DNA of 54,145 nt, the filler included, from Streblomastix strix (Eukaryota): the NCBI GenBank assembly GCA_008636045.1. It is 3 parts of 3 records of this genome, joined end to end, with 100 filler letters (N's around TTAATTAATTAA, not from the genome) between each part and the next. Parts side by side here need not be neighbours in the genome. Positions count along the whole stretch, not along the records: positions 18,096 to 36,085 come from SNRW01000653.1; 2 more parts are not named here. One strand, written 5' to 3'. The notes beneath the pieces are model-generated. The model searched no databases, had not been told where the DNA came from, and saw only the letters and a program-made list of their open reading frames with translations. The position numbers were made by a program, and so were the translations under genes. Of this stretch, positions 17,996 through 47,665 are shown in pieces. Numbering within the stretch: the first letter of the stretch is position 1; the number at the start of each line of letters is the position of its first letter.

Positions 17996-18095
17996 NNNNN
18001 NNNNNNNNNNNNNNNNNNNNNNNNNNNNNNNNNNNNNNNTTAATTAATTAANNNNNNNNNNNNNNNNNNNNNNNNNNNNNNNNNNNNNNNNNNNN
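17996..18095. other. Artificial contig-joining spacer
   Basis: 44 N + TTAATTAATTAA + 44 N, a six-frame TAA stop linker. Confidence 0.97.
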
Positions 18096-18941
18096 TCATG
18101 GGAAATAGATATTGTATTTTCAATGAATCCTGAGTTAGTTAGAATTAATTAAATTTATTTATTCTGTATTAACATCAATACTAAATATCTTGTTATATAT
18201 CCATTACATAGTAAATCATAAGGGGATATTGAAAAAACATTGTAAAATTTGGTTTGAAATAAGCATGTTACACATATCAGAGGTGATGGTGAAAAAGGAT
18301 TTGCCAGCAATTAACTTATGTAATTTTATAACAAGAATGATATTAAGACTTATTTTGTGAATGGCTCTCAAGAATTAACGAATCATAATCGTGTTGCTGA
18401 TTCTGTAATAAGAACAATAAGAGATGCTTTTGGATAAGATGACAGATCGTTTTCTAATCCCAAGTTAATGTAACAAATGGTTGATCTTTACAACGATACT
18501 CCTCATGGTGCATTTGATAATTAATTTACACCTAAGTAAGTGAATACTTAATAAGAGCTTGAAGCTTATTTCATAAGGAAGAATGATAAAAAATTACGAG
18601 ATGTAAGATAAGAATAATATGAAGATGGACTAACTAAATATAAACCTGGAAATATTTTAATGATTCATGTTGATTACTTACGTATAATGCATCGTTATAT
18701 GAAGTAAAGAAGAAATTTCAATGAATTAGCTAAGTTTATTAAATATGATGGTGGTAATGTAGAGTGCTTATTATTAAACCCATTTTCTGATTTAGATAAG
18801 ATAAGTGTACCAATATATTATACAAAGTACATCTGTGAAAATGAATAATAATTAAATTAACCTTAATTAATAAAATTTAATTAATAATTTTTTTAATTGA
18901 AAACTTTTATAAAAATATTTTATTTTTCAACAAAAAAATGA
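18096..18941 (+). pseudogene. Retroviral-type (rve) integrase, 5' truncated, one internal TGA
   Basis: SWEIDIVF...YLFCININTKYL...IRGDGEKGF...NRVADSVIRTIR...YNDTPH...FTP. Internal TGA at 18255. Confidence 0.85.
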
Positions 18942-19210
18942 GTTAAGTTTATATGAATATTCATGATGGAAGATTATGCAAATATTCAACAAAGGAAGAA
19001 GCAATTAAAGTTGCAAAATAGCAAAGGAAATAAAGATTAATTAGATTATAAACATAAAATAGATAATTTATTAACAGTGTCTCAGATTCTTAATTATTTC
19101 TCATTAAGAGATTATAAAGTATTATTATTTCTGATTCTCTTGAAGTAGATAGAATACATGAAATTATAAATAAGTATGAATAATAAGAATAATAATACGA
19201 AAGTATTTGA
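18938..19210 (+). CDS. Small basic hypothetical protein, conserved in element 2
   Basis: MSQVYMNIHDGNYAKYSTKEEAIKVAKQQRK matches KQFQTEDQAKNIARQQRK in the ORF at 45871. Confidence 0.6.
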
Positions 19211-19247
19211 AAAAATATATGAATTAATGTAAAAAATATAAGAAATT

Positions 19248-20321
19248 TCATTCTTTCTTATGAATTTTCGTAGATTTAGTTAATTTCTTATGTAAATCAG
19301 ACTATGCCTTAGCTGATTGTATTAGTTATGAAGTTGGAATAAACTTTTTCTTAAGCTTTGAATCTTTCTAACCTACTGGAACTACTGGTTTCTTCATATA
19401 AGGTTGAGGATTACCAAATTATTCATATTTATAACCAGCTTTATATGTTTCAAATGGAGATCTACCATAGATATCATTAATTGGTGGTCTACCCCAATCT
19501 AAAGCTCCAATATCATAGACAGTATTAAGATAATTTGCAGCAAGCATTTCTGATTATATTTATTATAGTTATTCATCCGTTAATTTTTCTTAAGCTAATG
19601 ATTATTCTCCAGCTATTTCTGAAACGTAAGCTGAATCTGGATGAAGTTCATCATTATCAGTAGGATATTCTTTGTTTAATTCCTTAGTTACCTATTCTTT
19701 TTACTTTTATGATCCATAATTCAACAATTCATTCAATTATTCTTCTTGTGTAACTACTGGACCTTTAGATCTTAAATCCATCTATGGTTAATTTAATCTT
19801 GCATTAATATTTCCCTCATAACTCTAAGCATTCTCAGTATATTTCTATTCTATTAACCTACCTTGTTCATTTAATCTGAAGGTAGTTTCATAAAGATCTG
19901 ATAATAAGCTTTTTGGAAAAAGCTCAGTATAAACTTACCGTCTATCTTTATGATCAGTTATTGCAGATATTCCAAATCTAGCTTCCTTTTCTGATATTTT
20001 TGTAATTCAACGCATAACTTCTTCTTCAATTGGTTTTAATTATGAAGCAGTCATTCCTATCTTAAATCTCAGGCCACTATTTAAGATTATATCTGGTATT
20101 TCAGCAACTAGTTCAGGTCTATATCTTTAATATCTAAGTGTTCTAAATTTACCAACAGCTTTCATCTTAGATTTATAATCACCACCAGCTTGTTGTTTCT
20201 TAAACTTCTCCATACTACTATTAATGAGTTCATCAAGACTAGTCAATGGAACTTTTGATAACTCTAATTCATATTCATTAGGTTTATATGTTTTTTTACC
20301 CTTCTTTCCTTTCTTAGACAT
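19248..20321 (-). pseudogene. Hypothetical viral protein with basic termini (possible core/DNA-binding protein), one internal TGA
   Basis: MSKKGKKGKKTYK...LDWGRPPINDIYGRSPFETYKAGY..., homologous to LNWGTAPVNQYYCKTPYATKRIGY near 46400 on the minus strand. Confidence 0.6.
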
Positions 20322-20339
20322 TTACTTACATTATTTTAA

Positions 20340-20450
20340 ATGTAAACAAAGTAAATCAAATTTCTAATGATTTGTGATATATTAATAACAATTTCATCTT
20401 GTTTATTACTTGTTGTATAGATAATTAAAATTTAGAGTAAAAATAATTGA
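20340..20450 (+). CDS. 36-aa single-transmembrane peptide
   Basis: MQTKQIKFLMICDILITISSCLLLVVQIIKIQSKNN*, with a syntenic homologue at 47286-47378. Confidence 0.55.
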
Positions 20451-20489
20451 AGAAAAACATAGGTATTTTATATATTTTTAAACCAAAAG

Positions 20490-20708
20490 CACATTACAAT
20501 AGAATAATTTCTTGTATATTCTAATTTTTTTAGTTCATTATTATGTGTTGCAACTAAATCAGATCCTGAAATTGAACTTATATTTCTCTTACGGTAGTAT
20601 AATAAACATCTTAAGATGGAATAACTCAAATAAATCATTGGTATTGCTTTAGATACTGGTGAATAAGAATCATTCTTAAAATTAGTATATTACCTTAATG
20701 AAAAATGA
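20490..20708 (+). CDS. Small conserved hypothetical protein (start uncertain)
   Basis: ...SLLCVATKSDPEIELIFLLRQYNKHLKMEQLKQII... aligns with 47430-47645. Confidence 0.55.
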
Positions 20709-20742
20709 ATACAACAGTATATTTATTTTTGAAATTAAAGTA

Positions 20743-22225
20743 ATGTCATCCTTTAGCTTATAAATACTGTGTTCTGACTCAGATTCTGATTATGTAACTT
20801 GAAAGACATCAATTCCCAGTGATTCTAAGTCATTTTAAGTAAATTTTCTTAATAACATGCCAATAAATCTTACTTATTACTTGAATCAAGATTACTTAGA
20901 GATATCTCATGGTATGTAATCATCTATAAATAAGAAATACTACGAATAATATAATATTCGTAATGGAACATACAAATTAACAGAGATAACTGAGATTCCA
21001 ACTATAAAAATAAACTTCAATACTACTATTAACAAAAGATACACTAACGAATAGAATTATCAAGGATATTAATATGCTCTCTTAACCATGGTTATAACTT
21101 CAGCATAGTTAGATGAGTTCGTAGATTCTTAAGAAAAGTACTTTCAGATGATAGACACTAGTAATCATGGAGTAATTTGCATTAATAATGCTTCTAATGA
21201 ACATACTTAGAAGTTATCAGATGGAAAATACTCATTGAATATTAATGATAGTTAAGATATAGTATCTTCTGCAATAAATTATATTATTCTAAGATTAGAT
21301 TCATTTCTATATAAGTACTTTACATAATCTAATGGTTGTTACTACAGATTAATAGGTATCAATCGTTTATATTGCCCTACGATAAATAACTTCATAACAA
21401 CTATTGAACCATTCTTAACAACAACATCAGTTCATTCAGTTAAAATACGATACTTACATGGAAAATAATTCCATATCAATGATGTTAATATAATAGAAGA
21501 AGTAATAGCTTTACCAAAGAATATTTAATAACCAACTATGTAATCAATCACTAACAGTATCAGTACGTATCCAGTAAGAATAATATCTTCAATTCGTTGT
21601 TAGAATTCTAATGATTGGAATATTATATATACTGCTGTTAACAGACTTTAATATTATAAATAATATGTTCTTGATGTATTAACTCAGTTTTCAACTATGA
21701 ATTATTAAGCTAGTCCTTAGATTCTATGGTAACCAAGGAGATTAACTCTATCACCTAATTTATTCAAATAATTAACTGGTGCATTTGATTTATATGATGG
21801 ATTATCTGAGAATGCTGCAAATCCTATCGTTAATAATGCTTCATCAGTGAAATTTATTGACTTAGAAACTTGGTATTATAAAAACTCAGTATGATTCTTA
21901 TAGTTAAATTGCTGATACTCCAATTCTATGTTCATTGATTGGAATTTTCCATTAATATCCTCAGATGCTTATAATTTCTGTCTCTAACGAGTTATAAGGT
22001 ATCACATTATAAGGAAAAGATGGTTAAGGATTCTTAAATGTATGCTACAAGTAAAATCTTATTGGTGCACCACTATTATTGGGTTAAAATATGTTATCTT
22101 AAGAATGTACGATAGGCTAATACAAAAATGTTATATTCATTTTATATGACAATTATGGAAGAAAAATAATTAATTAATATATTGATATGTATAATAATTT
22201 ATTATTAGAAATTCAATCTTAGTGA
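20743..22225 (+). pseudogene. Putative minor capsid (penton-like) protein
   Basis: About 490 codons, beta-rich, C-terminal FILYDNYGRKI...LLLEI typical of Polinton-type pentons. Clear paralogue at 47666-49162. Internal TGAs and frameshift. Function is inferred. Confidence 0.55.
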
Positions 22226-22393
22226 CACTCTTTGAATTACATAATACCATTGATTTTCCTTATTTTTACTTAACTTAATATATTTAATATTGGATCATTA
22301 ATAATTATTAATTCTGCAAATGTAATACTATTATTAATCATGTTTATAATTGCAAAAATAATTATAACAAGCATATTTTATTTCTCCACCTTT

Positions 22394-24352
22394 TCATCCA
22401 CTTCTAAGCATAGTCCCACCAACTTCACCTATGATTTCAAAGTTTAAAACCAATGGTTCAGGTGCATCATCAAAAGTAAATCTAATGATAGCATCGTATA
22501 GATAGTGCATCTAAAGAGTTATTTGAGCATTTCTTGGAGTAGGATAAGCTCTTGTTGCAATAAATTGTAAAAGATTATTCTAATCATCTTAGATTCCAGG
22601 AGCTGCATCAAGTATCTATGAATTATCTATTATTCCTTGAGTTATACTCCCTTATAAAGTAACTTGAATATACGTTCTTGCACCCATTTTGTTGAACTAT
22701 ATTATTTCATAAATGAATCATAAGTTGCCATCTTCCATGCAAGCATAAATTTATGATGATAATGTATTTTTACTGCTTTATTTCCTATGTACAACGTTGT
22801 ATTATAGAATATATTTTCTCTATCAATATAACTAGTGCCCATTTGTCCATAGTAATTGCCATTTGATTCATTTATAGTTTGATTTTGAAAATTCAATGAA
22901 TGATATAAATCTGTAGGTGCTGAAACTAAGTCTTACTCAACAAAAAATTTGAATATCTATCCTGTAACCATTGGATTCATCGATACATATTCTTACTAAA
23001 TAATATGTCGCTGATCAATTTCCAAATTAAACTTCTAAAATAACACAGGAAACATCCAAATTGGATATTAATTCAATGCAAATGTAATAAACATAGCTTT
23101 TATGTTTGAACACGACATCGTACTCTACATTGAACCACCATTTTCTGAAAATCCACGAAATGGGAAGTTACTTGATTATGTACGTATAATTTACATTAAG
23201 AAATTCAATATTTTTTGAGTTCTTATCATATCAATGATTGCTTATTCATTTTCCATGTCAAAACTCACATTATTAATATCTAACTTAATGAATCTTGCTT
23301 CCTTAATTTAATTTATTGAATTTGTAGGTCTTCTTTCATCACGAGCTTTTCCTTCCATATTAACTAATCTTACAGAAAATCCTAAATATGCAGCTACAGC
23401 TGCATTAATTAAGAAAATTAGATCTGATTTCTCTGTTGGAATCATTTAATAAGCAAGATGTTAGTTAGTTATTGTATCAGTCATATTCAAATATACAACC
23501 TTCAGATATTATAAGAAATCTTAAGTCTAAGTATAAATATAACGATGCATAGTTACGTTTTAACACTGGAAATGAATTGAATATTGGATTTAACTAATTT
23601 AAGTCAAGTACTCCAACAATAATTATTGGATATGTAATTAATTAATTAAAGCTTCCAGCAGCAAAAGCTTCAACAGGTATATCTATGAAAACTCCACAAT
23701 GTCTTCTGCCACTAACAACTGTTTCTAAAGGTGATACACTTACAGAATTTTTTGTACATGAATCAGATAATGAATTTGCAGCTATCACAGCTTATTCTCT
23801 TGCATATCTTGATGTCTCCCATAGTTTTGTATAATCTTTACAGATTGCTATTTATTAGAATGGTCCACAAGCTATTGAATAACCAAGCCAGAACTTAACA
23901 TATTCATTCGGATTGATTGGCATTTCTTTATCTTTAGCACCAACTGCCATAGTGCGAACCCAATCTGCTTATAGATCCTCTAATCCATTGAAATTTACTC
24001 TTGCTCTTGCTATTGCCTTTGAATTTAGAGCTGTAGATAATCCTGGAATTAAATTAAGTTATAGTGCCAATCTCTCTCCAGGAATTGTTATTAACCAGCA
24101 GATTTAACATGATTATGCCATAGAGCTAGTTTCTTAACCTCTTGCACCTAATGGAGCTAATGTATATCTTTATCCATCACTTGTAAGTTAATTAATAGGT
24201 TAATCAAAGAATTTTAATCTACTTATATTAAAAATCTATGGATGAATAGAAGCCTATCTCAATACTTCTGACATTGCTGAATAAATAGATATATAATCAG
24301 AATGTTAAACACGAGCTAATTTTTAAATATAATCACTTGCTGAGAAACTCAT
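22394..24352 (-). pseudogene. Putative major capsid protein (double jelly-roll inferred)
   Basis: About 650 codons: MSFSASDYIQKLARV...KFWLGYSIACGPFQQIAIC...LDLNQLNPIFNSFPV...KFMLAWKMAT...HYLYDAIIRFTFDDAPEPLVLNFEIIGEVGG. Several frameshifts. Size and context fit an MCP; the fold is not verified. Confidence 0.6.
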
Positions 24353-24407
24353 TAAGTTTGATTTACTTAGAATTTAAAACAGTAAGTAAGTTTTATTATT
24401 CAATCAT

Positions 24408-24647
24408 ATACATTAACTAGAAAATCAAATTAAATTCAATAAGGGATTCTTCTCTGGTTTGAAAAATTTCGAAAGTAAGATATTAGGTGGTATTAAGAAA
24501 GTTGCAGACTGGGATACGCCTACTTTACATAAAGTAATGGGTACTTTAAGTGGACCATTCAGTATATTACATCCAGGAGCTGGATAGATCATGGGAACTA
24601 TAGGTAATATTGCTTGTGGATTAGATAGGCATTTAAATAAGAGATGA
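24408..24647 (+). CDS. Gly-rich amphipathic peptide resembling the adenovirus protein VI lytic helix (start codon unclear)
   Basis: KGFFSGLKNFESKILGGIKKVADWDTPTLHKVMGTLSGPFSILHPGAGQIMGTIGNIACGLDRHLNKR*. Confidence 0.55.
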
Positions 24648-24699
24648 TAATAAAATACTTATAAAAATAATCAGAATAATTATTTTTCTAAAAATAAAA

Positions 24700-24933
24700 T
24701 CATCAATAGAAGATTTATATAAATTTGCTTAAACACTAGGAAAAGAAAATAATGCCTCTGAATATGAAGTGTTAAAAATATTTGAAGCATTGATTGATGA
24801 TAAGGAATTAGATGATTTGTAATAATAGTTCTATGATTAGAAAAAATAGGAATGTAATGAAAGATATGGTCTGATATCAGAAAAAACTTGTGAAGTCATT
24901 GGTTATCTTCACTACTTAGATACGTTAAGATGA
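24700..24933 (+). CDS. Small acidic hypothetical protein
   Basis: SIEDLYKFAQTLGKEN...IGYLHYLDTLR* is open in code 6; start uncertain. Confidence 0.4.
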
Positions 24934-24939
24934 GTTAAT

Positions 24940-25361
24940 TGATAATATGCACAAAATAGTTGATTATCTACGTCTGTAACAAATTAATTATATATCTGTT
25001 TTTCATCATCATCAGTTGCTTCAGATATAATATATTTCTTTATTTATTATGGTTATTAATTCAAATCCATCTTCTTCTTGATTTGATTATATTCTTTTGC
25101 ATAATATTTATTATTCTCACCATATATTTTAATTTTATAGTCTTCATCATCAATAAATTATTTAATTGACTATAATTTACTCTATTAAGTTGTGAATTAC
25201 TTATTAATTCTTATTAATTCTTTAAGTAATATATGTTATGAATCTTATTTACTTTTCATCAGCTGATTCTATAGTGCTTCCATCATTGTTTTAATTAAAT
25301 CATCGTCTTCATAGTTTGTTTTTGGTAGTTCAGCGAATAATTATTTAAGCGGTTTGGACAT
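24940..25361 (-). pseudogene. Hypothetical coiled-coil protein, probably frameshifted
   Basis: MSKPLKQLFAELPKTNYEDDDLIKTMMEALQNQL... Confidence 0.4.
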
Positions 25362-25400
25362 TTAATATCAAAAATAAATTATTAACATTTCTTAATATTT

Positions 25401-27634
25401 TCATGGAGGAACAGCCCCTAATGTTACTGGTTTAGCTCTCCAACATATTTTAGGTCCATCACTATAGAATCCTCCATTTGTATCTACGCTATTTACACCC
25501 CATAGATTGGACTTTCTGTTGAATAATTAACTAAACCATTACTAGCACCGTTAATTGCACCGATTCCAGCAATTACTTATCCATTAAAAGATAATGTGTT
25601 TCCATCTGTTGAGATCATTAATCCTTAATTATCCTGACCAAGTTGAATATTAACTCCAATTCTTAATTCTCCAATAGGTGTATTTACTATTTTCCAGTAA
25701 TCTGTTAATGTTCCATCAGTTGAATTTGGATTACATCCTAGATAAATTCCACTATAATTAATAGCTTCAGAACGAGATATTCTTATTCCCTCATTATAAC
25801 TATTACTAGATGGTTTTATTTAAAATATATTACTAAATGTCTTTCTACCTGTAATGGTTTAATCAGTTCTAACATCAACTAATTCATTACTATTAAATTT
25901 AAATTATGTACAATCACTATTAATACTTAATCCAACACTATGGTCAGCTTATCGTAGAGACGATGGGTTAATTGTTAGTGCCCTATCACTTATTTTACTT
26001 ATCTCCCATTAACCTAATTGTGTAGTATATATAGCTGTAGTTGAACATCCGAAATATAATGATGAGCATTCAGTGTTATAGTTTCCAATTCTAAAACTAT
26101 TATTAAACGTAGTATAAGTTTGGCCTGTCGGATTAACTTATAGCATATTATTTATTATACCACCATTAGCTAAATTATAGGTAATTGGTATTTATATACC
26201 ATTTGATATTCCTGAGACTACATCTTATGTTAATATCTCTGTGATTCTATCAGTATAATAAGTGCTTTAATCAGATGCAACTATCGTAACGTTACCAGCA
26301 GATTCTAATCTAACATATGCTGAATAAATAGCTGATGTATCAGAGCCTGAATGATTATGAAATAATTAATTAACACCTTAATCTATATCATAGTATGAAT
26401 TAACTTTAGTTGCAGCTGTAAATATTCCATATATAGTATTGATTCCATTAACAGTATAATAAGGTTCTAATCTAATGGTTTGAACAGAATTGTAAGATGA
26501 ATATAATTTAAATTCAATGAATGGGCTACCTGCACTAGCACCAGCAGGAAATACACATAATCTAATCCATCCACCTGCACTAGCGTTATATGATCTAGAA
26601 AATTTGCAATCTATTGTAGTTGTATCACCATTAGCACACAATACTTCTGTAGCTGTTCCTCCTGATTTAATAAATTTAGTTGCTATACCATTTCCATCGT
26701 AAGTTAGTTACTGAGGATGAAGATGATCATGTCTTGAATAATATGCTGATGTACAAATATTTCCGACTCCATTAACTACAGGTACAATTGAAGCATTTGT
26801 TTAGACATTAATAGAATGAGAATGATCATTTCTAGAGTATGAATCAACTGTACCATAAGATCCATCTGCTGAATCACTATTATAAATAGTAATTACAGTC
26901 TAAATTGGATGTTAATGATCAGATCTAGCATAAGAACTAGCTTGTCCAACAGTATTTACAGATGTATCTTTACTTGGTAAAACATCAGAAACTTATAGTG
27001 GATGCTTATGATCTCCTCTACAGTACTCATTTGAAGTTCCTGCAGCATCAGTTCCACTCCAAACTAATGGAATATCATCACTTGCAAGAGTTACTTAATC
27101 AGGAACCATATCTCCACTGTTATATCAATTCTAATCATACATCCATACTGTACCACTTTCAGCTGAAAAAGCAAAATCACCATTGGCAGAATTAGGTCAA
27201 TTTTATATATCTGTGTTCAATAAATAGTAACCTCTAAAATGTGTTTATTTGTTAAGTTCATCATTAATATCATTAATTTATTATTATAATCCACCAATAT
27301 CTTATGTTGCTGTTCCAAACGTCTATTATAATACGTTAACTTCTTATTCTAATGTAGTTATTTTACGTAAGAAATCAATATTTAATAAATTTTTATTCTT
27401 CAATGTCATAACACCATTGGTTTCCAGTTTCATGGCATAATTCAATGGATTATCTATTGGTGCATATATTTATGAGTTATAATCATCAACTATTGATTAA
27501 TATTCACTTCCTGAAAATTAACTACTGGAACTTGATGAATTTCTTGAATATTGTATCAAATATTGGAAATCAAATTATATTTATGAACGAATAACTTAGA
27601 TCTATTATTAACTCAAGGTTTTAGCTAATATCAT
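25401..27634 (-). pseudogene. Phage-like tail-fibre / receptor-binding protein
   Basis: N-terminal coiled coil; four YxRxDHxH repeats (YCRGDHKHP, YARSDHQHP, YSRNDHSHS, YSRHDHLHP; about 26715-27030); FIKSGGTATEVLCANG; DQTITGRKTF; two GxRI...I/LYxGC...W beta modules. Two internal TGAs and a late frameshift. Confidence 0.75.
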
Positions 27635-27689
27635 ATTTGAATAAAGAAAAATAAATATAATCATATAACTTATGATTCGTTCTTTAGTA

Positions 27690-28262
27690 TCATCTTTAAT
27701 ATTTTGATTTATAATTTCCATTACGCAGCTTATCAATGTATATAAAAACAGGTTTATCGTTAATATCTTGAGCATAAACATATTAATATTAATATTTATT
27801 CTTTTTAGTGAACATCTCTAACTTTCTATATTTTAGTCCATTATGGAAATAAACGTTAAAATCTTAGTCAAAACTGTAACCTTCAAGAATTGATTCATTA
27901 TATTAATTTAATATTTAAGATCCTGCAGGTAATTCATCTATATATTCATAGGTTGATCGATTTGTGTTATTCTCTTTTGGAGTTACCCATCGTAAATTTT
28001 CTATTCGATTATCGGCTCGATTTTGGTTTTTGTGATCGATATCTGGTAAATTTAAAGGATTAGGAATGAATTGTATAGTTATAACTCGATGAAATTAAAA
28101 TTTTACACAATTTAGAGAAACATATTAATAACCGTACTTCTTATCAATTGAAACAATTGGAATAATGCCATATGAGATTTTTCGTATTGTATATGGTGAT
28201 CCAGTTAATATTTCATAATCATTATCAAGTTCTAAAACTTACCATTAATTAATTTCTTCCAT
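27690..28262 (-). CDS. HNH homing-type endonuclease (HNH_3/NUMOD4-like)
   Basis: Intact 190-aa code-6 ORF containing HRVITIQFIPNPLNLPDIDHKNQNRADNRIENLRWVTPKEN. Confidence 0.9.
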
Positions 28263-28300
28263 TTTTGGAAGGAAAAATAATTATTTATTAAATAAAGTTT

Positions 28301-29356
28301 TCATTATTTGATTATCAGAAACTGGCTAGACCATTTACTAAGTATTATGAATTCATATTTATAATGAGTTCCATACAGTAACATAAACTCATCAAAGTTA
28401 AGATTCTATAAAAAGTTCTCTTCGTATGCTTGTTTTAAATCACTGTCAGATAGACTAACTCCTAAATGCATGACATGAGATAAAATTCTTGCAGTTTTAA
28501 ATAAGTAACTTGGACGTTATGCAACAAAGAAAACAGTATTTTTATTATGTTTACTGTCGGAAATTAAATGAGTTATTGTCTTCGCTAATCCTGAAGAGAA
28601 TCTATAAATATCAGCATTACTTCCTACGTCATCAAATATTAACAATGAATTTAACAATAAACTATGAAATAATATAGGAATCTTCGTTACTTTTAATTCA
28701 GCATCACCATCATCTTATTATATTTCTATTTATCTCTCTAATTATACGTTCTGAATCATAGCAGGAATAGTAAATCTCATTATCATTGTTGGAACACTAT
28801 ATTTAGTTATGATATTAATACATTCTTAACGAAATATCTAAGCAATTCTTCTTGCATAATCCTTTGGTTTCTCTAATTATTATTCTGGTGTTGCAGAAGC
28901 AATTCGTGTTGGATTCTATTTTATTTGATTCATTATTAATATTCTTTCTTTCATTCTCTGTATGTAATCAGATTTGTACGATAAATTTACTTCAATTAAC
29001 TTCCAATATGCATATATTTCTTTAACTTAATATTTAATTTCTTCAAATTATGGAAGGAAATACATAGCTTCTTCATAAGTTATTTTAGTTAAGACTATAT
29101 TCTTAGAGTTTAGATTCAATGCCATAGTCTCATCAGCACCAAAATTAGAGAAATATAAAATGAATGGATAGATTTTTTATTTGTAGATTACTATCAGTTT
29201 ACTTAATAAAGTTGTTTTACCTTAACCAACTGCACCAACTATATAATGATTCCCAATGTTTAAGAATAATGAATTCCTTGTCAATGGCTTTGTTTTATAT
29301 TCATCTAACATAGAAATATCGGTAAATGTCACAGATTATATCTCAGATAATGTCAT
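28301..29356 (-). CDS. A32/FtsK-HerA-like genome packaging ATPase
   Basis: Intact 351-aa ORF: Walker A GAVGQGKT, Walker B LLIFDD, then SKHNKNTVFFVAQ (RH...Q motif). Confidence 0.85.
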
Positions 29357-29397
29357 TATATTTATTATTAAACAAATGTAAGTTAAATATTATAATA

Positions 29398-29790
29398 ATG
29401 ATAATAAATTCTATATTTTATGGAGTAAACTTCATTGTATCTATAATTTCTCTATCAAATCCAAAGTAATTACCAGATATTACTGCTTTAATTAAATAAT
29501 TATGGAGTTATTTTGATGTGATTCTAGTTCCTATTAATATAATTATATATTTATTTCTGTTTGTTTATCGTAGGAGAAAGAAAATTAAGATATAATCATA
29601 AAAAGAATCTGAAGAGAAACCAAATATTAATTAAGTAAGTTATTTTCATTGGTCTAAGTATTCAAATGAATAGATAGAGGAATTCATTAAAGAAGCCATA
29701 GAAAAATAATACGAAGAACTTGCAAAGATGTGGAGATATATTGTATTTAAAGTTATTGAATCTTAAAACTTATAACACTGTCTCAAGTTG
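29398..29790 (+). CDS. Putative membrane protein (end uncertain)
   Basis: Hydrophobic N-terminus, TM segment VILVPINIIIYLFLFVY followed by RRRKK. Confidence 0.45.
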
Positions 29791-30781
29791 AAATATAATA
29801 CGTTCCATTAATTATAACAGAATTTCCTGTTGTCCAACTTATTTTTTGAAATATTTCATACTTACCAGTAATAATTATCAGTTGGACCATTAATTCTTAA
29901 ACAAACGTTCGTTGGATAAGTAGAACCTTATGAAAGAGAAATTTCTTAAAGCGGAAGATATTTTTTTCTAGTGATAGCCTAATATCTTATGGAATGCTTA
30001 ATGTAATTATTTTCTAACTGAATGATGTCTCATATATTGTTAGATCCATGTTAATATACACCATATTTTACCATTTATACACGAATTATGTTGAAAATTC
30101 TGATGGAATTGAAACATTTGTATTCAAAGTTATGGAACTACAATAATTAGTTAATAAAGTTGAAGAATAAATTACGAGATCATTAAACATTAATCTTTTA
30201 CTCATCATAGCTTATCAATGTTGTGAATCATTACTTGGATGAATTAATAAAGTATTTAATTTACTTGCTCTTATTGACCATTATCCACTAATAGCACCAC
30301 TTTCCTAAGTGTTAGAACAGCCAAAATATATGTTTGAATTCTAATCCAATGTCAATTTTGCTAAATTTCTGGAAATTCTTATTCCATCAACACATTCAGC
30401 ATCATAATAATGTCTTAAATTAAAATGATTCATATCAATTCCATTTACAAGCATAATTTATTAATTAGTACCTTTTGGTTCTTTAAAAGATTATGCTGTA
30501 ACTTGATTCGTAAATGATTTAGTTCCAGTAACAGTATAAGCTGTGTTCAATGTTACTAAATGTGATATATCCACTTATGTTTTCTTAAAGAATTAACTAA
30601 AGTAAGTAAAATATTTTATTATTTCATTATCTATTTATTATATTATTTATTTTTACAAATTCTATAGTGATTCTATTTTTTATTATTATTTCTTCTTCTT
30701 CTCATATTCTGATTTCATTTATTATAGTTCTTCTTCTGATAGATCCTCTAAGTCAGTTATTTATTACGCTTCTTCTTCCAT
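29790..30781 (-). pseudogene. Second, shorter tail-fibre-like gene, degraded
   Basis: Coiled-coil start MEEEAQQITDLEDL..., then LVTLNTAYTVTGTKSFT and GIRISRN...IYFGCS...GQWSI, matching modules of the 25401-27634 fibre. Frameshifts and stops. Confidence 0.6.
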
Positions 30782-30809
30782 TAGTTTTCAACAAAAATAA
30801 ACAATTTCA

Positions 30810-31540
30810 TGATGATATTTATTTCAAAAATCTTCTGGACCAATATCTGATTCTAGCTTGTCAGATTATCTAATAAAGTCTTTGGTAACACGATACAGCT
30901 TCTCAATACTATTCCCTAATACGTTATCAATGTTGGAAATTGAGATATTCTTTATAAGAACATCATCTACTCTTACAATCTCTTTCTTCTTATATTTTTA
31001 TGAAGTACAACTATTATATCTCATCAGTGGCTCTTTCATAACAACTTCAGTATTTTTCTCTTCTTCTTATATTATTAATGCCCAGAGTTTAATATAGTTA
31101 TCAGAGTTAAATATGAAATCATCACCTTTCTTTCATGAATCCACACATCTCCAAATCGTATCTATGGTGAATTTCTATACTTCTAAGTCAGTATGAGAAA
31201 AATATGTATCCTTAACAGCTTATTCTGGTTCAACCTGAGCTATTGCACGTGGAACTTCTTTATATTTATTAATATTATACTTACGTCTTCGTAGTCTTTC
31301 AGTTTAGATCTCTCGTTGTGGTTCTTCTTCACCAATGATTAGATCACTGCTTCGTAATGGTGCCTGAATCGAGGACTATATTTATAACTATGGAATTTAC
31401 ACTGATTTCCTGAATCCATTCGTAATAGCTTCATCAATGGCTTATAATCTAGCCTTATCTTCTTCTGAAAGTTCTTTCTTAACAACACTCGCATGTTTGC
31501 TTTTATGAACTCAAATTTGATTTGTTTGTATTGTAGTCAT
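30810..31540 (-). pseudogene. Hypothetical viral protein with internal TGAs
   Basis: MTTIQTNQI*VHKSKHASVVKKELSEEDKARLQAIDEAI... Confidence 0.45.
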
Positions 31541-31581
31541 ATAATTTTGTGTTTAAATAAAATCAATAAGTATCTTAAAAA

Positions 31582-32270
31582 ATGAATCAAGCATAAGCAT
31601 TAAAAAATTTCAGCGAAAACGGAACTTCAATCAAGTATTTCAATAATGGATATATTATGTAAGTTAAAGATAAGATCAAAGTATATGAAGAAGGAAAGAA
31701 AGCAGCAAGAACTCTCACTCAAGCATAATAAACTAAGCTATTATTAGAAGCTAGAGGTGGAGGTTAAACTAAATAACCAAAACGAACATTAAAAAGACAT
31801 GTTGAATAAAACTGTGATGAAGCAGAAGATGAACTCACGAAAATGAGCAGATCTTATCTACGATAAGAGCAAGCTGAACATTATCTTATGAATAACGATG
31901 ATTATGACTGTGACGACTAATAAATTATCGTAGAATAACCAAGATAAACTCCAAAACCAAAGCCGATGAAAACAATAAAGAAGCCATAGATAAATTATAC
32001 TTCTCCATAAGTAGATTTAGAGAAATTAATACGTTTACGAACAAAAAACTCATTTATTAAGTAATAACATCAAGAATCTATTAAGTAAGTTGCGAAATAT
32101 AAAGCAAAAAAAGAGATTATAAATAAAAGAAACTTAACGATGAATAAGCAGAGTAAATATAAACTCAACCATAAGAATAAACTCCTGAATAATAAGAATA
32201 ATAAGAAATTAAATTTAATGAAACAGATTTGTGGTGAATATTTTAATTATAATTCATTATATTAAATATT
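31582..32270 (+). pseudogene. Hypothetical charged protein, apparently frameshifted
   Basis: MNQAQALKNFSENGTSIKYFNNGYIMQVKDKIKVYEEGKK...; 3' end uncertain. Confidence 0.45.
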
Positions 32271-32922
32271 TTTAAATTTATAAATATTTTAAACAATAAT
32301 ATAGCTGTTATAGCTTATTGGTATCGATAGTGAATCAAAAAATTTTCGGCTTAGGTTTGTATCGAACTTGAGTATTATTTTTATAAAAATTATTTTCAAT
32401 TAGTTGATCATGATCATAAAAATAAAAATTAAAAAATTAATTTTCAGAAGTTTGTCGATCACGATCTGATCGGATCAAACTTTAGTGATCAAACATTAGG
32501 AATTGAATTTGAAAATTATTTTTTGGCAAATATTTCGGAAGATCACTTAAGATATGTTATTATATTTTATAAATGCAAATCCTAGCTTATAAATTAATAA
32601 AAAATCAAATTATAATAAATAATATGGAAATAATAACATATTTAACACGAAATCTTGAAATATTTATAAAATCGATTTTTCAGCACGAAATTGCAATTTA
32701 ACTCAATTATTTTTTATTTTCCAATATTTAATTATTTTTTATTTATATTCTAATCACATTCATTAGCATAGAATCACTGTATGATTACTGTTTGCAGACC
32801 TCGTTTTTGGTGTCAACCACACTACATTATTTTTGTATTTTGAGCTCTATCAAGCTCAATCACTCGATGAACATGACCTTGAGTTGATTTTGAAAATGAG
32901 CTCTCAAAATAGTAATTATTCG

Positions 32923-33052
32923 TTGAAACACGTTTTAAAACAGCAATCACTTATTGAAACACAATTAAAACAACAATCGCTCGTTGAAACACAATTAAAA
33001 CAGCAATCGTTCGTTGAAACACAATTAAAACAACAATCACTCTTTGAAACAC
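32923..33052 (+). repeat. 30-bp tandem repeat, about 4.3 copies
   Basis: TTGAAACAC at 32923, 32954, 32984, 33014 and 33044; unit approximately TTGAAACACAATTAAAACAGCAATCGCTCG. Confidence 0.9.
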
Positions 33053-36000
33053 GTTCTCAGACGAATTCTTAACAATTAATGCAGTGCCCGTCTTCTCTAT
33101 ATTATTATTTCATTTTACAATTATCTTATTAATTATTTATAATTTTTATTATTTGTCTACTTTATTTATTTTTATAATATGCAATTAAATAATTTTAATA
33201 AATATATCCTATAAAACTTTATTTATTCAGACAGATATGAATTAAATAGTCAAATTTATTCTAACTTTTTTCATATTTTGTTAATTTATTAATCCATTTT
33301 TGAATTATTATTAGTTTAATATATTTTTAATTTAATTTACATTAATTAAACACAGATTATTTATTAATTTTTTTTTATATTTGGTTTTAAATTAAAAATT
33401 AAAAATTGAATGATATACTTAATGAATTGACTGATTGAGATTATTATGATAAAAAATAAATAGCAATTAAATGAACGGTTAGATTAATAATTGTCATTAA
33501 ATTCTGATTAATATTCATTATCATTTGCAATTACATCAACATCATCAAAATCATTATTAGTATATTTAAATCCTATGTTTGATAGAAAGATCATAGTCCT
33601 ATCAACTGTTAATTCTCTCCTTTCATATGAAACCAAAGAATAGATGTTTCTATCTACGATCAATTTCACAAGAAAGAGATTTTTTGATATTACTTGATGC
33701 AATTAAACGTTTTATTATTAATATTAATAATAAATATTAATTGACATTATGTTTGATTAAATGCTAGAATTAAGATTTGAAAACTAAAAATGATGGAAAA
33801 GCTCCAACTAAATAATAATCAAAATTAGAAATGAATTAATGAAGTCATGAATTCTTTAGTACTTGCTGTAGATATGAAAATTCCAAATTCTTAAAATCTT
33901 TTCTTTATTGAATGTATTTTGCGTAAAAAATATCATTTAAACTTATTATTTCAAATGAAACTTCTCTGATTGAACTGGATAATGCAATGAAGAATTCAGA
34001 TCCAGAGTTTTGAGAAACACAACTAAATTGAATGAAAAAGATATCAAAAAATTGAAATTGAATATCATACAAAATAATGATGCTGTGATAAGGAATTAAT
34101 TTGAGAAGGAATTAAAGGAAATAAAAAAATTTAACGAAGAAAAATTATCTGAAAATTAAAAATAAAGAAAAAATGGTGTAAATAGGATGAATATTTTGGC
34201 GACTTGAAAAATGATAATTTTGATTTTGGATAGATAGCTAAATTTTAATATTAAAATATAGGGGGAAAATGATTTGCAATAATATTTAGTAAAATTATGC
34301 ATATGGAGAGAATGACGGCTAAATTTGTACATGAAGGAACAGTTATAACACTTTCAGACGAAAAAAAATCATAATATCAAATATTTTCTCATTAGTCCAA
34401 AATAGTATCATTTAATACAACTCTTAATTCGTTGTGCAATGGTTTTGCAGCAACGATGTCTCAATTAATGCGAATATAAGATTTAACTTAATAAAATGAA
34501 GATATATCAATCTCTGAATTTCATCTTGCATTATGTGAGTAGCATGATCATGATATAATAGATTATTATGCAAATTTCACACCGAAAATAATATTAAACC
34601 AACAATACCAATTATTCTTTACTTGTGACAAATTGTAGAATCATTTACACAAATAGAATGCAGGTGACTTCTTCGATTTGCTTCAGGTAGTGGAGCTACT
34701 CAAATAAAATGATTTGCGTATCTAGTTGGAAATTAAATCGATGAATATTATAAATTTGCAATTATATTAATGAGTATAGTCCTAATGTTGAAGCATAAAG
34801 AAGAGCAGAAAGATGCAAATAATTAACAATCCAAATTGAGAAAGATAGAGCAGTGGAATTGTGAGCCTTTCTGTTGATCATTTGCGTTTCAATCGAATTT
34901 ATATTCTTCCATATACATTATCGCAAATGTTGGAAGCTTTACTAACCAATATTTTAAATTTACCAAAGTTTGTTACTGTAGGATTAGATATGAACTGAGT
35001 TTATTGATCTACATATTTACTGTTATTTTTTGTTTATTTGCTATCTTTGATGCTTTTTACTCAAAATTTTTAAATAATAATAATTCATTTCACATTCGCA
35101 CTTCATTACCGAGATTACTTGTACTTAAATAAATAAATATTTTTTTTGTTATCAATTAATATTCTATTTTTTGATTCAGAAATAAAAAATAAAATGAAAC
35201 TTATATAAAATTGTTGAATTGAATGTTTATTGAATGAACAATTTTGATAATAAACAAAAACTTTCTTGGTGTAATCTACCATCAATATTTAACTTGCAAT
35301 TTATTTCATTGATAAATAAACTGATATAATTTTAGTATTATATTATTATATTCTTTTCGCAAAATTACGAGTTATTGCTTCTTTTGTTTTACTACATCTT
35401 CTGCTTTTGAACAATGCAGTTCTAATTTTCATTCTGTTGAATTGTATTTTATTTCTTCAATGAACTTCATTCATTCTTTTGAAAGTTGGAATTAGTGTCT
35501 CTATGATCTATATTTATTTTCTGAGAAATGCGATTTGAATCCAGTTCCTTCATTTGATTCTTCGCGCTCTACCTCGTTTGTATTTTCATGGTTCAGTACA
35601 TTGCAAACACTATCAGAATCAACTATTACCTTGTCTTTCTGAATTTTTAGAAGCTCAACACAGACAATAAATTCATTTTTTTATTCTCCTGCTTCGCATT
35701 GAGGTCGGAATAATTGTCGTTCTAGTCGTTCAATCTGTTCACCTTCTCCAGGATGAAAGTTGATTGGCAATATGAATATTCATTCATTAATTTAATTTGA
35801 TACGTAGGGTCATTTCAAAATATAGTATTTTGAAAATACATAGTACTTATGAATGATCAAAGTTTGTTTAAGAAAAAAATTAAATGGATTCATATATACT
35901 TCATATATGCTAATAAAATAGAATTCAAATCGTATATTTAATATATGCTGAGTGCTGGTTTATTGGAACTTTTAAACTAAAAAATGCATAAAAATAGTTA

Positions 36001-36085
36001 CGATATAGTTAAATAAATCAAAGACAAAAATTTCACTAATATAAAAATAAAGTATATATGTTACATATATTGATTTTCATATCAG

Positions 36086-36185
36086 NNNNNNNNNNNNNNN
36101 NNNNNNNNNNNNNNNNNNNNNNNNNNNNNTTAATTAATTAANNNNNNNNNNNNNNNNNNNNNNNNNNNNNNNNNNNNNNNNNNNN
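36086..36185. other. Artificial contig-joining spacer
   Basis: 44 N + TTAATTAATTAA + 44 N. Confidence 0.97.
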
Positions 36186-36548: not shown

Positions 36549-36624
36549 ATATAAATATGGTAATAAAGGATAATATATTGGTAAAAACTAAGGTAAAAAT
36601 ATAAATGATCTGTCCCTTGAAGCT
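36549..36624 (+). repeat. Left inverted terminal repeat of DIRS element
   Basis: ATATAAATATGGTAATAAAGGATAAT...GATCTGTCCCTTGAAGCT; 71/76 match to the reverse complement of 39149-39224. Confidence 0.9.
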
Positions 36625-36651
36625 TTTTTATAATTCACAAAAGTGTTCAAA

Positions 36652-38046
36652 ATGACACAACAGACCCTCAACGACCCATTTAAATGCCTTAAAAATCTGA
36701 AAAACATGACTACATAGTTCTTTTTTGACGTGGCAAATAAGGATGAGCAAGCCTCGGGCTAGTATATGAATTGCTAAATCCCTTCGTTCATTACGCCGAT
36801 CCTCCCTGCATGCTTACATCTACTTCGATGATTTGTTCAAGAAATTGACGTTTTGGAGGGATAGAACTCTTTTCCGTGGCAATAGTTGCTTGAAGGCGTG
36901 AGCGTGAAGCATATTAAGGCATTTCACTTCTTACTTATCGTCGGGGGTCCAGTTAATACGGACGGTACCTTATCAGAGAGTGTACAATCAACATAGTTCA
37001 TGTGAGACATACATAAATTGTAATATGGTGAAGTTGAACAGCAAATTCAGATGGAGACATTCGGATTTCCTAGGCCGACTGAGGAGCAGTAGAGACCGTA
37101 TACGCCTGCGTTTATACCGTGATAAGGAACTAAAGTCCAATTCAATGTACCACTGACTAAATTTCCAAGCCTGCTTAAGGAGAAAGAGAAGATTCGATCT
37201 CCTGATTTATTACATGCGTAATGATCCTATACGCAATCACAATTGCACTCGGTTCCGTAAATATCTCATCCAAGACCATCTTTTACATCACTTATGGATT
37301 AAGAAATCTCTGACGAAAGCGATATGAACCAAGAATTGGACGACTATCTCCTTTTGCAAGATGGATAGCCGACTCAGAGTATTAATGGAAGAGTACTTCA
37401 GGAGGTTGCATAAGCAATTGAAGAACTATCGATTAGAGTTCTGAAGCTACCCAAATTCACGTGGGAGTCAATTGAACTGGAAATACTTAGAAATTTAATC
37501 GTCAGATGTCCACAAATTCAGAAACCGGAAGATGTAATTGGATTATTGGCCAAGAAAGAATCAAGTGACACACTCTCTCTCGATAGATACTTAACAGGAA
37601 TTTAAGGGCGTGTATTTAACTTAACAAAGCTGCTCCTTGCTACTCTGACAAGTTATGCAGTGCAAACTGGACTACATCTATAAGAGATAATAATTTACGT
37701 ACTCAAAACAATGGAAATATTCAATTCTATTTAAGAAACAAGGCGTATTAAGTGCCTGTACTTATCATCAAAGCCCGTCGCGACAACAGAGGAAGCATAG
37801 AAAAGACTGAAGGAACTAGAAGAAGAAATAAAACTGACACGCAAACCTAAGTACGATTTCCGACCACAATATACAATGAGACCTTTATCGAATATGGACT
37901 AAAAGAGGAAATACAATGGGTTTCAATAGTACAATCAATTCAGTTGGCCTCCGAAACAATAATAACCTGGGAAAAGGACAATTGGACGTGATCGAGGCTA
38001 TGATAAAGCAGGAAGAAGAGGCAAGAAGCCTCAAAATTCAACATGA
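36652..38046 (+). pseudogene. DIRS gag-like ORF1
   Basis: 465-codon frame MTQQTLNDPF...RRGKKPQNST* with about 4 internal TGAs; basic RG-rich C-terminus overlaps the RT frame. Confidence 0.65.
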
Positions 38047-39150
38047 TCTTAACGTGATTGGGCCCCCGAACCCCAACAGAACAATCGGGGTTGGATATAA
38101 ACTGCATTCAACCCTAAACGGCAGTTATTAAAGGAATAGATATAGAAAATTAAAGATTAATAAAGCACAGAAAGATAACAAACGCCATTAGGGGGATGTC
38201 TAAGATATAAAATATTACAATGGAAAGAAATAAATTGCAAATTCAATCTTAATTAAGGTATTCAAATAGATTGGGCCGATAATCCTCCATCATCAAAGGG
38301 TTACTCTCAAATTATCGCTCATAACTTATAGGAATTGGAAACACTAGACTAGCTAATAAGCGAAGAATTAAAGGAATAAATTATAATACATTGCAGAGAA
38401 TAGGAAATTCTTCTTCTTAATCCAATCTTTGTTAACCGAGAATCTTCTGAGGGGTACAGAAAAATAATGGATTGCCAAAATCTAAATTAATATATCAATT
38501 AAATTCATTTCAAAATGGAAGATCAACGGACGTTAAGAGATAATTTGTAACATAACGATCTGGTTTCAACACTAGGTCTTAAGTCAGCTTATCTTCATGT
38601 ACCAATGGCGGAAGAATCCTCTAAATACTTCGGGTTCAAATACAATAATCAATATTACCGTCAGAAAACGCTATGCTTCGGGCACACATCTGCCCCACAT
38701 ATATTCATACAACTAATGAGGCTCATAATCTCTCAATTGAGACCCAGAATTAGAACAGTCTCGTACCTAGGCGACTTTGCTTTCCTGTTTACAACAGAAT
38801 CAGAAGCTTTAGCTGGAATAAAAGAGATTATCTTACTTTTTCGAAAGCTAGGATTAACGATAGAATGGAATAAATCTAACCTCATTCCATCTCATTAATT
38901 CACATACCTCGGATTCGATTGGGATACAAGTAAGATGATTGTAAGCCCATCAAAAAAAAGAATATAAAAAGCAACAAATAAAGTTTCTCAAAGATTAAAA
39001 AAAGAATTACTTTTGTGGGAAAATCGCCTTCTATTGGACTTTGCTCTATCAATAATTCCATTTCATTAAGACGCAACCCTTACCACAGATGCCAGCTAGG
39101 ATGGTCTAGGAGCTTGGTTACAAAAAGGAAACTAGAGAATGGCTCAACAG
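37916..39150 (+). pseudogene. DIRS-type reverse transcriptase with partial RNase H
   Basis: PLGGCL...W, RKIMDCQNLN, HFKMED, LGLKSAYLHV, LCFGHTSAPHIF, SYLGD, FTYLGFDWD, TLTTDASQDGLGAWL. Frameshift near the 5' end. Confidence 0.9.
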
Positions 39151-39224
39151 CTTCATGGAACAGATCATTTATTTTTTTACCTTAGATTTTACCAATTTAT
39201 TATCCTTTATTACCATATTTATAT
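39149..39224 (-). repeat. Right inverted terminal repeat of DIRS element
   Basis: Reverse complement of 36549-36624 with 5 mismatches. Confidence 0.9.
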
Positions 39225-39299
39225 TGTACATATTTGAACACATCGCGAATAAAAGAGTGAAGTTCTCATTCATGTCTATCGCCTGGGCTTTGCCGAGGC

Positions 39300-39590
39300 T
39301 CATTGATTTTTTTTATAGTCTCGAAGTTATTCAACATTATGTCTCTTTCTTTGAATATCATCTTTTATTCCTGTTCTGTATCATAATCAACTACTTTGAT
39401 AGCAACAATTCTTTTGTGCTGCTTTTTCCATCATGCATCAAACTGTTCCAAATCCACCTTTTCCAAGTTTCTTGACCTTTTTAACTAATAACAAATATAT
39501 AAATAGAATAAAATGAAAATATTTGTAAATATTAATCTATCAATAAAATTTGTTCTTCAAACAGTCAGTTTTCTTCCAGGATGAGTTTAA
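39300..39590 (-). pseudogene. Protein kinase N-lobe fragment
   Basis: KKLGKGGFGTV*CM...(frameshift) RIVAIKVVDY...KERDIM (subdomains I-III), lost next to the DIRS end. Confidence 0.75.
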
Positions 39591-40059
39591 TGGCACATTT
39601 GAACTAATAAATTATGAAGGTTGAATAACATGCAAAGTATGAGTAGAAGGAATTGATTAAAGATGAAGTTTAGGAATGTATTATTGTGCATTTCTTGCTG
39701 ATCCAATTTGAGAATGATTCTCATTTTTAAATCAAATGCCTTTTGGATATAATTGATTATATGAAAATAATGGAATAATGGATTTGTTAGATAATTAATA
39801 ATATTAATATTAACATAAAATAATAATAGTTTAATTTGAAATAAATAATATTCAAATACTAAATATCTAAGAAACAATATCAAAATCAGGACATGCATTT
39901 GGATGTATATATGGTTATATGATTAATTGATGCATTCAGGATGAATAATTATTTTATTATTATATTTATGATTAATTTTGATTAAAATAAATTGAAAATG
40001 AAGAAGAATTGTAAGAATGATATTATTAATAAAGAACATAAAGCAATTATTTAAAAAAA

Positions 40060-45846: not shown

Positions 45847-45870
45847 TTTATTTTTTTATTAGTATATTAA

Positions 45871-46140: not shown

Positions 46141-46169
46141 CTAGCGTTTTATTGAAAAATGAAGCAACT

Positions 46170-47645: not shown

Positions 47646-47665
47646 CATTAATTTTTGATAATAAA

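Follow-up and report, generated by a model that had tools for sequence, protein, structure and literature searches.

The closest described systems are the endogenous Maverick-Polintons and PLVs of Metamonada, and endogenous Polinton-type viruses of Streblomastix strix are already in print. The accessible part of Bellas 2023 (PMC10120064) reports 820 MCPs; the published S. strix MCP seeds carry six tags, and one such sequence has 562 aa and is about 32% identical to T. vaginalis. Metamonada elements are left ungrouped in the available sections of a later study, which finds their morphogenetic module highly divergent (10.64898/2026.06.19.733378); they are unplaced in recent classifications, whose authors want more genomes. 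PLVs, as presented in the text at hand of Yutin 2015 (PMC4642659), have a minimal module of MCP, mCP and ATPase without a maturation protease, and virophages are recognised by dedicated HMMs for MCP, ATPase and protease (Roux 2023, PMC9952930, in the portion available). The openly accessible articles searched contained no gene map for any S. strix element.

The window analysed here is a stretch of 54,145 nucleotides made of three contigs joined by artificial spacers; it holds element 1 and, on another contig, element 2 (Table 1). We are fairly sure that element 1 belongs to a multi-copy family of Polinton-type endogenous viruses in the termite-gut oxymonad S. strix and is a decayed copy truncated where its contig stops; the full-length form of the family probably has pPolB to the left of the integrase. 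The original prediction of an endogenous Polinton-like virus, from a lineage little described so far and in a protist that uses code 6, was supported. The family has its host lineage, code 6 and hundreds of endogenous copies in common with the Metamonada elements as far as the accessible text of PMC10120064 describes them, and its pPolB (P0209) shares 43% identity with a protein from T. vaginalis. It resembles Polintoviricetes in having a pPolB that bears vOTU-like motifs, an MCP of predicted jelly-roll fold and a 15-20 kb scale, along with a putative rve-type integrase, a putative packaging ATPase and a penton candidate, but differs in that no adenain was detected in the family and the MCP has no Pfam match. 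Whereas almost all PLVs lack an rve integrase, according to the available part of PMC4642659, the element 1 family appears to have both integrase and pPolB. What it has in common with PLVs is the small morphogenetic set of MCP, minor capsid candidate and putative ATPase, with no maturation protease detected.

Gene content and state of element 1

When 18096-33098 was translated with table 1, zero ATG-started ORFs of at least 100 aa were found; with table 6 the gene set emerged, and the host code 6 is thus in use. Read in this code, the virion gene cluster lay where the original prediction had placed it (integrase fragment, penton candidate, MCP, ATPase, peptide, two fibre-like genes, HNH). Most of the listed genes were recovered; of the membrane proteins, given in the plural, one two-helix ORF was found, and a second was absent among the five ORFs tested. 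Most genes are broken: the integrase, penton, MCP and fibres contain in-frame TGA codons or frameshifts, those of fibre A being located in part from P0152. Judged by its reading frames, element 1 is a decayed copy whose products can no longer be made.

Table 1. Features of elements 1 and 2, in positions of the window
Feature	Position	Strand	Remarks
Spacer	17996-18095	none	N44-12 nt-N44; same pattern repeated at 36086-36185
Putative rve-type (DDE-like) integrase, element 1	18096-18941	+	5' end missing; in-frame TGA at 18255
ORF X	19248-20321	-	basic N-terminus; TGA at 20009
ORF Z	20451-20708	+	small, conserved; 48% to element 2 47379-47537
Penton (minor capsid) candidate	20743-22225	+	TGA at 20800, frameshift near 21885
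MCP	22394-24352	-	652 codons; two frameshifts, near 23535 and 22690
Small amphipathic (pVI-like) peptide gene	24441-24647	+	start codon absent in element 1 copy
150-aa ORF	24909-25361	-	no family above cut-off
Fibre-like gene A	25370-27640	-	TGA at 27199 and 27127, frameshift near 25505
HNH endonuclease, optional insertion	27690-28334	-	PF13392, E 5.6e-11
P-loop ATPase, putative packaging type	28301-29356	-	open frame 351 aa; Walker A and B visible
Membrane ORF, two predicted helices	29398-30021	+	hydropathy scan
Fibre-like gene B	29783-30781	-	TGA at 30217
ORF pieces, frame shared with fibre B	30824-31510	-	
Lysine-rich ORF, last gene of element 1	31582-32250	+	inside multi-copy region
Approximate right end of element 1	32250-32500	none	depth drop
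Element 2 (other contig)	44230-54145	+	cut by stretch end
Element 2 integrase	44836-45912	+	followed by ORF X, ORF Z
Element 2 penton candidate	47633-49159	+	homology to element 1
Element 2 broken pPolB	about 49560-54145	+	PF03175, E 2e-8

The integrase is 38-47% identical to pieces of the element 2 integrase; zero Pfam, NCBIfam or PHROG matches were obtained for it, and its assignment to rve comes from DDE-like motifs judged by eye against what we take to be the family pattern. ORF X, to which 46176-47117 of element 2 is homologous (E 2e-6), is possibly a core protein. Genes A and B have a repeat in common (E 1e-4 to 5e-4), and their designation as putative fibres follows from composition and repeats, without a profile match. 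The HNH gene comes and goes between copies: contigs bypassed it in three of three runs, and its summed depth in run X1 was 266, versus 39,000-51,000 alongside. For the lysine-rich ORF there was no family above the cut-off and no similarity to the similarly placed ORF of L002. The right boundary had been set at 33,098; an element is indeed there, but multi-copy cover stops near 32,500, where summed depth in run X1 fell from 43,697 (31896-32495) to 1,005 (32496-33095) and then to 37 (34296-34895). In a comparison for terminal repeats, shuffled sequences scored as well as the right end of element 1 did when set against the left end of element 2.

The polymerase and the contig break

No pPolB or adenain-like protease had been recognised in element 1, and the scans of 18096-33100 likewise found none: of the 145 stop-to-stop segments of at least 60 aa (28 + 117), HNH alone passed the Pfam cut-off, and neither pPolB nor adenain did. 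The further suggestion, that the element could be polymerase-less or helper-dependent, found no support. Position 18096 is base 1 of a 17,990-bp contig, to which P0352, a protein encoded within the stretch, maps; element 1 is cut there in mid-integrase, and since the contig begins at this base, the left portion of the element is missing from the data. In a sister copy, the single gene model P0264, the C-terminus of a pPolB (aa 1-240) is followed by the N-terminus of an integrase whose end matches the first 15 residues of element 1 at 14 of 15 positions (E 5e-5); the element 2 integrase is 47% identical to that of P0264 over 38 aa. The pPolB of P0264 falls in a clade apart from that of element 2; its sister group is a cluster of 17 members, one of them 1,324 aa long. 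Because of the contig break, and because P0264 has pPolB directly upstream of its integrase, element 1 is likely not polymerase-less; the missing polymerase is most likely an assembly artefact, and in the full-length form pPolB likely lies just left of the integrase. The polymerase-less headline falls with this, as the contig break would explain the absence. Of the pPolB and protease that, if present left of the integrase, were to count against the original prediction, pPolB is carried by P0264, and no protease was detected.

Other copies link pPolB with the penton, ATPase and MCP. In P0330 a penton is fused to pPolB, likewise in P0258 as judged by its first 11 residues, and in the pPolB models P0213 and P0326 one exon runs antisense to an element 1-type ATPase. 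At the family level, pPolB, a criterion for Polintoviricetes, was thus found through PF03175 in element 2 and through the links in P0264, P0330 and P0326. Of the 32 pPolB contigs of at least 5 kb, three agreed with an MCP contig in length and had tags close to its own, where 0.32 would be expected by chance (P about 0.003); a case at 7,604 bp is ambiguous, with two MCPs at the same size, and one shared 18,877-bp contig ties MCP, ATPase and pPolB. Contigs below 5 kb, among which chance collisions occur (P0025/P0304), were dropped before counting; P0129 (an MCP) and P0264, both at 3,786 bp, were also left uncounted, this length being too short for both and seven tags lying between them. The MCPs co-located with pPolB belong to other clades than the element 1 MCP (P0419 via its cluster representative P0044).

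From the integrase of element 2 near its left end it had been argued that little is missing from element 1. The position holds, the integrase lying about 600 bp from a left end marked by a depth step and by a unique contig ending at 44228, but the argument fails because the layout differs, element 2 having its integrase first and its pPolB after the penton; gene order, as far as these sequences go, is shuffled between subfamilies. The same position, together with the colinearity of the first four genes in both elements, could be taken to place element 1 in a non-autonomous subfamily which, having lost pPolB, starts at the integrase and borrows a polymerase from sister elements or a helper virus. 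This we consider improbable: P0264 places pPolB upstream of an element 1-type integrase, the gap coincides exactly with the contig stop, and the element 2 layout minus pPolB would turn the penton toward the ATPase end (P0213, P0326), whereas the penton of element 1 faces the MCP end. Sampled pPolB on only 2 of the 59 MCP contigs of at least 10 kb would fit such a loss, although the samples are incomplete and the contigs fragmentary, as they are for the 29 of 32 pPolB contigs with no sampled MCP; so would L002, an intact-looking 13.4-kb relative, cut at one end, in which neither pPolB nor integrase was seen. Least probable is that the stretch combines several nested or wrongly assembled copies, so that the order of its genes and part of its breaks match no single element: at most 0.34 of the sampled words occurred in the best run, no listed contig covers the stretch end to end, 1,729 of 13,755 run X1 pieces are at least 99% alike and other copies have differing neighbours (P0152, P0145, P0184), but the single-copy flank is identical to run contigs with zero differences (run X1 record 8), the hallmark genes are each present once with no module doubled, the colinearity with element 2 holds, and MCP and small peptide are adjacent in four other gene models.

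The link for the element 1 subfamily comes from one ab initio gene model, possibly a rearranged or nested copy.

Capsid proteins, peptide and protease

The element 1 MCP is 70-74% identical, in three pieces, to the intact homologue P0121. Searches returned 223 + 73 MCP homologues; all 193 matches listed bear the S. strix name, with no T. vaginalis MCP among those listed. At least 620 aa were found in 41 of the 286 collected records, and one cluster holds 29 near-identical intact copies. In the ESM Atlas, P0121 had a feature score of 0.96 to Capsid_N/Capsid_NCLDV clusters, and its structure gave a TM of 0.47-0.60 (by query) to viral capsid-type clusters on an Atlas model with pLDDT 0.48; the neighbours are mixed, with several DJR clusters including Sputnik-MCP ones, and the closest non-self cluster (0.97) is mostly Parabasalia. 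By this model comparison the MCP family is predicted to be double jelly-roll; jelly-roll folds had been expected of the capsid candidates. The AlphaFold model of the MCP was poor (pLDDT 52): VIA reached a best Z of 4.3 with it, and its Foldseek search against PDB and BFVD, with zero matches at E 0.001, is uninformative on the fold.

Standard-code metagenomic relatives (L001-L003) are 26-31% identical to the MCP. IMG/VR gave zero loci for the MCP, pPolB and ATPase queries; GTDB contigs gave zero for the MCP and three short pPolB loci, in whose two genomes the MCP was absent, without a positive control. No RNA dataset was among the runs listed as holding words sampled from the stretch. The element 1 MCP has about 650 aa versus 562 aa for the published S. 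strix MCP, and in 400 residues of one published sequence, the part available, the motifs of the element 1 family were absent. None of the six seed tags published for the T. vaginalis-seeded Metamonada MCP group (cluster 40) was among our collected records, a collection that is incomplete, with 103 of 223 matches unlisted. From sequence, the approximately 650-aa MCP seems to differ from the Trichomonas-type MCP published for S. strix, and it may be a capsid type not yet described.

The penton candidate is 42-60% identical to pieces of that of element 2 and, through element 2, weakly linked to a 701-aa ORF of L002 (E 7e-6); it had no profile match. For this distant homologue, Atlas feature leads of 0.91-0.92 included PF21507 V18-19 at 10% of one cluster; the best TM was 0.47 by target on a model with pTM 0.22, and the AlphaFold model had pLDDT 32. 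The ATPase is 33% identical to those of L001/L002, which adjoin their own MCP; there was no Pox_A32 match, PDB matches were generic P-loop only, and the A32 label, given from motifs, is our assumption.

The small peptide, 48-85% identical to pieces of four S. strix gene models, has a hydrophobic moment of 0.52 (shuffle P 0.03 in element 1, 0.002 in P0190). It is Gly/Lys-rich, in which we take it to resemble pVI in sequence. A short amphipathic helix is likewise the lytic peptide of adenovirus protein VI in the accessible part of PMC7998265; the element 1 peptide differs in having only about 69 aa, in lacking a match to adenovirus pVI among PDB sequences (E up to 10) and in that P0190 has no propeptide to remove, its amphipathic helix starting at residue 2. 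Such a peptide may function without need for cleavage. A motif scan of 365 segments gave no His+Cys adenain pair, and adenain was found in none of 145 element 1 segments, 9 element 2 segments and 15 L002 ORFs, in scans that also missed the MCP, integrase and ATPase. The lineage probably lacks a separate maturation protease of the adenain type. If true, a Polinton that has no protease and whose lytic peptide stays uncleaved would bear on the timing and cause of the gain of this enzyme.

As a tentative proposal, in which we place limited confidence, S. strix would have a second, undescribed DJR capsid lineage, its MCP of about 650 aa being unlike the Trichomonas-type one, shared with standard-code metagenome elements, carried by recently amplified viruses with pPolB and integrase, and protease-free because the pVI-like lytic peptide is ready-exposed at the N-terminus. 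If so, its intact copies and distant standard-code relatives (L001-L003) would form a bridge for placing the Metamonada elements.

Proposed life cycle of intact members

In intact members, the linear genome would be copied by its own pPolB and inserted into the host chromosome by the rve-type integrase. MCP, penton and fibres would build the particle, the ATPase would fill it, and on entry the amphipathic peptide would open up membranes; for the element 1 family, assembly of particles and entry are proposed from gene content. The vOTU-like domain at the N-terminus of pPolB would free the terminal protein. vOTU motifs have been described for Polintons, in the available part of 10.1101/2024.03.18.585575, and among the proteins scanned here the vOTU-like His motif was present in 15 and the Cys motif in 3.

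Boundaries and gene content of element 1

The artificial spacers divide the window into three contigs, and since the middle one starts at 18096, element 1 opens partway through its integrase, at that contig's first base. A single window protein was recovered from the protein collection, and its contig measures 17,990 bp. Contigs from three runs of two studies covered element 1 many-fold (a summed depth that does not equal copy number), and because this cover drops near 32,500, we place the right end about 600 bp short of 33098, the end in the original prediction, whose virion gene set was indeed found. The genes were visible solely under code 6, and all 193 listed homologues of the major capsid protein (MCP; 120 of 223 in a first search, 73 of 73 in a second) are named Streblomastix strix, with identities of up to 89%, which points to S. 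strix or a closely related oxymonad as the host.

From left to right, element 1 contains an integrase fragment, ORF X, ORF Z, a penton candidate, the MCP, a small amphipathic peptide, a 150-aa ORF, fibre A, HNH, the ATPase, a membrane ORF, fibre B, unassigned pieces and a lysine-rich ORF. It is a decayed copy: in-frame stops interrupt the integrase, ORF X, the penton candidate and both fibres, frameshifts are present in the penton candidate, the MCP (two) and fibre A, and the amphipathic peptide gene has no start codon. Part of these breaks could be assembly errors. The HNH gene behaves as an optional insert, since it was bypassed by contigs in all three runs and adjoins the MCP in two other gene models.

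Features of the window and of related metagenome contigs
Feature	Coordinates	Observation
Spacers	17996-18095; 36086-36185	
Middle contig	18096-36085	
Element 1	18096 to ~32,500	
Tandem repeats	32906-33060	just outside element 1; five 30-nt repeats in a short ORF; moderate multi-copy cover
Retroelement	36549-39224	RVT_1 (E 1.4e-18); flanked by 79-nt inverted repeats; presumably DIRS-like
Element 2	44230-54145	penton directly before pPolB
pPolB part of element 2 with homologues in bacterial MAGs	52235-53506	
L002, left end	64-363	73-nt repeat, three times
L002, tandem ORFs	5380-7290	three ORFs of ~200 aa with a common short DNA repeat; look paralogous
L005	1-4534	nearly all broken standard-code pPolB of the same family, circularly permuted; end repeats start

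Linkage to a protein-primed DNA polymerase

The element is predicted to work like a Polinton, being self-copying, integrating and capsid-coding, a likeness that does not by itself establish formal membership in Polintoviricetes. The Polinton-like virion cluster of the original prediction stood; the missing pPolB (protein-primed DNA polymerase B) is probably an artefact of the contig end. With the pPolB of element 2 as the query, 71 proteins were found. In the gene model P0264 (contig of 3,786 bp), residues 1-240 are a pPolB C-terminus and the end is an integrase N-terminus, which agrees at 14 of 15 positions with the start of the element 1 integrase fragment; the element 2 integrase is 47% identical to P0264 over 38 residues. 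Since a spliced gene model represents one strand of one contig, pPolB in this copy ends shortly before an integrase of the element 1 type. The pPolB of P0264 clades with P0241 and P0293, separate from the clade of element 2 (FastTree, 46 rows).

That element 1 truly is polymerase-less, as first proposed, is improbable, although P0264 is the one gene model tying pPolB to its subfamily, no sampled MCP partner was found for 29 of 32 pPolB contigs of at least 5 kb and no sampled pPolB partner for 57 of 59 large MCP contigs, the MCPs co-located with pPolB fall in clades other than that of the window MCP (quick IQ-TREE search, 43 rows), and no pPolB was seen across the 13.4 kb of the metagenome contig L002. 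Other copies, however, connect pPolB with this set of virion genes: in P0330 a penton C-terminus is fused to a near-complete pPolB, the pPolB models P0213 and P0326 each have an exon antisense to an element-1-type ATPase, and 3 of the 32 pPolB contigs match an MCP contig in length and have near locus tags (0.32 expected by chance). Given P0264 and the start of element 1 at a contig edge, we favor the contig-end artefact over a polymerase-less lineage. The original prediction had named pPolB and a protease left of the integrase as evidence against it; pPolB is there in P0264, and no protease was detected in the segments scanned of elements 1 and 2 and L002.

The family has at least two layouts, pPolB-integrase-X-Z-penton-MCP-fibre-ATPase in element 1 (pPolB as reconstructed from P0264) and integrase-X-Z-penton-pPolB-ATPase-MCP in element 2 (past pPolB as reconstructed from sister copies). 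The penton-pPolB order of element 2 recurs in P0330 and P0258, bridged by run contigs. Several bacterial MAGs, assigned to Brachyspira, Bacteroides and an alphaproteobacterium, have annotated pPolB fragments of the family, which are probably misbinned protist elements. L005, likewise from a bacterial MAG, may be a wrongly binned element, circular or in tandem, that consists of pPolB only; the genome containing it yielded no MCP.

Protease and amphipathic peptide

As originally reported, no adenain-like protease was recognised, neither in all 145 element 1 segments of at least 60 aa nor in 9 element 2 segments or 15 L002 ORFs, a weak negative in that the same libraries missed the MCP, integrase and ATPase and the elements examined were all incomplete. 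vOTU-like His and Cys motifs occur among the family pPolBs. A vOTU-like protease domain is described for Polinton pPolBs in the available text of 10.1101/2024.03.18.585575. A protease-free state would not be strange for this kind of element, since PLVs were defined as being without a maturation protease (PMC4642659), the protease was found in 74% of Polintons but not in Tlr (PMC4028283), and among the major PLV groups Gosseviruses alone are said to count it as core (10.64898/2026.06.19.733378).

In adenovirus, the lytic peptide of protein VI (pVI) is described as being exposed by the protease (PMC7998265, in part). In the intact-looking copy P0190, an amphipathic helix with a moment of 0.52 (P 0.002 against shuffles) begins at residue 2, the start being a gene-model call, so that, judging from sequence, cleavage would be unnecessary for the peptide in P0190-like copies. 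The peptide gene predicted as pVI-like is present; its homology to pVI found no support in the sequence search. Adintoviruses have membrane-active accessory proteins of other kinds (PMC8502044, in part).

Capsid proteins and their relatives

ESM Atlas places the MCP family with double jelly-roll capsids: by features, clusters of Capsid_N, Capsid_NCLDV and Sputnik-MCP lay at a score of 0.96 from the intact homologue P0121, and its low-confidence structure model gave TM values of 0.47-0.60 by query over 356-473 residues with eight non-self clusters. The AlphaFold model of the MCP was too poor to inform on the fold. Of the capsid candidates expected to have jelly rolls, the MCP is thus supported through P0121, and the penton remains a candidate, which rests on its position, a C-terminal motif that we take to be a penton motif and faint Atlas signals obtained with a remote homologue.

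At Atlas rank 2, the MCP met a mostly parabasalid cluster (0.97). Parabasalid polintons are treated in preprint 10.1101/2024.03.23.586382, whose available text leaves Streblomastix unmentioned, and two 2026 preprints (one being 10.64898/2026.06.19.733378) place, in their available parts, the MCPs of such elements outside the Maverick clade, ungrouped. Bellas 2023 (PMC10120064) reported 820 code 6 MCPs of S. strix, all in a single cluster with T. vaginalis as its seed. None of six of the S. strix seed tags there was among the tags fetched here, and the displayed part of one seed MCP was without the motifs of our 650-aa MCP family. On these tags and this partial sequence, the 650-aa MCP of S. 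strix may be a second MCP type and possibly an undescribed capsid lineage, a comparison that covers part of the S. strix data there and 120 of 223 first-search MCP matches listed; the mostly parabasalid cluster at Atlas rank 2 speaks against a separate type. The element is otherwise of known type; what matters is this possible lineage and the idea of protease-free entry. Standard-code MCP relatives (26-31%) were on three metagenome contigs (3 of 119 pattern matches), and L002 has an MCP, an ATPase, a penton-like ORF and a fibre-like ORF, all open.
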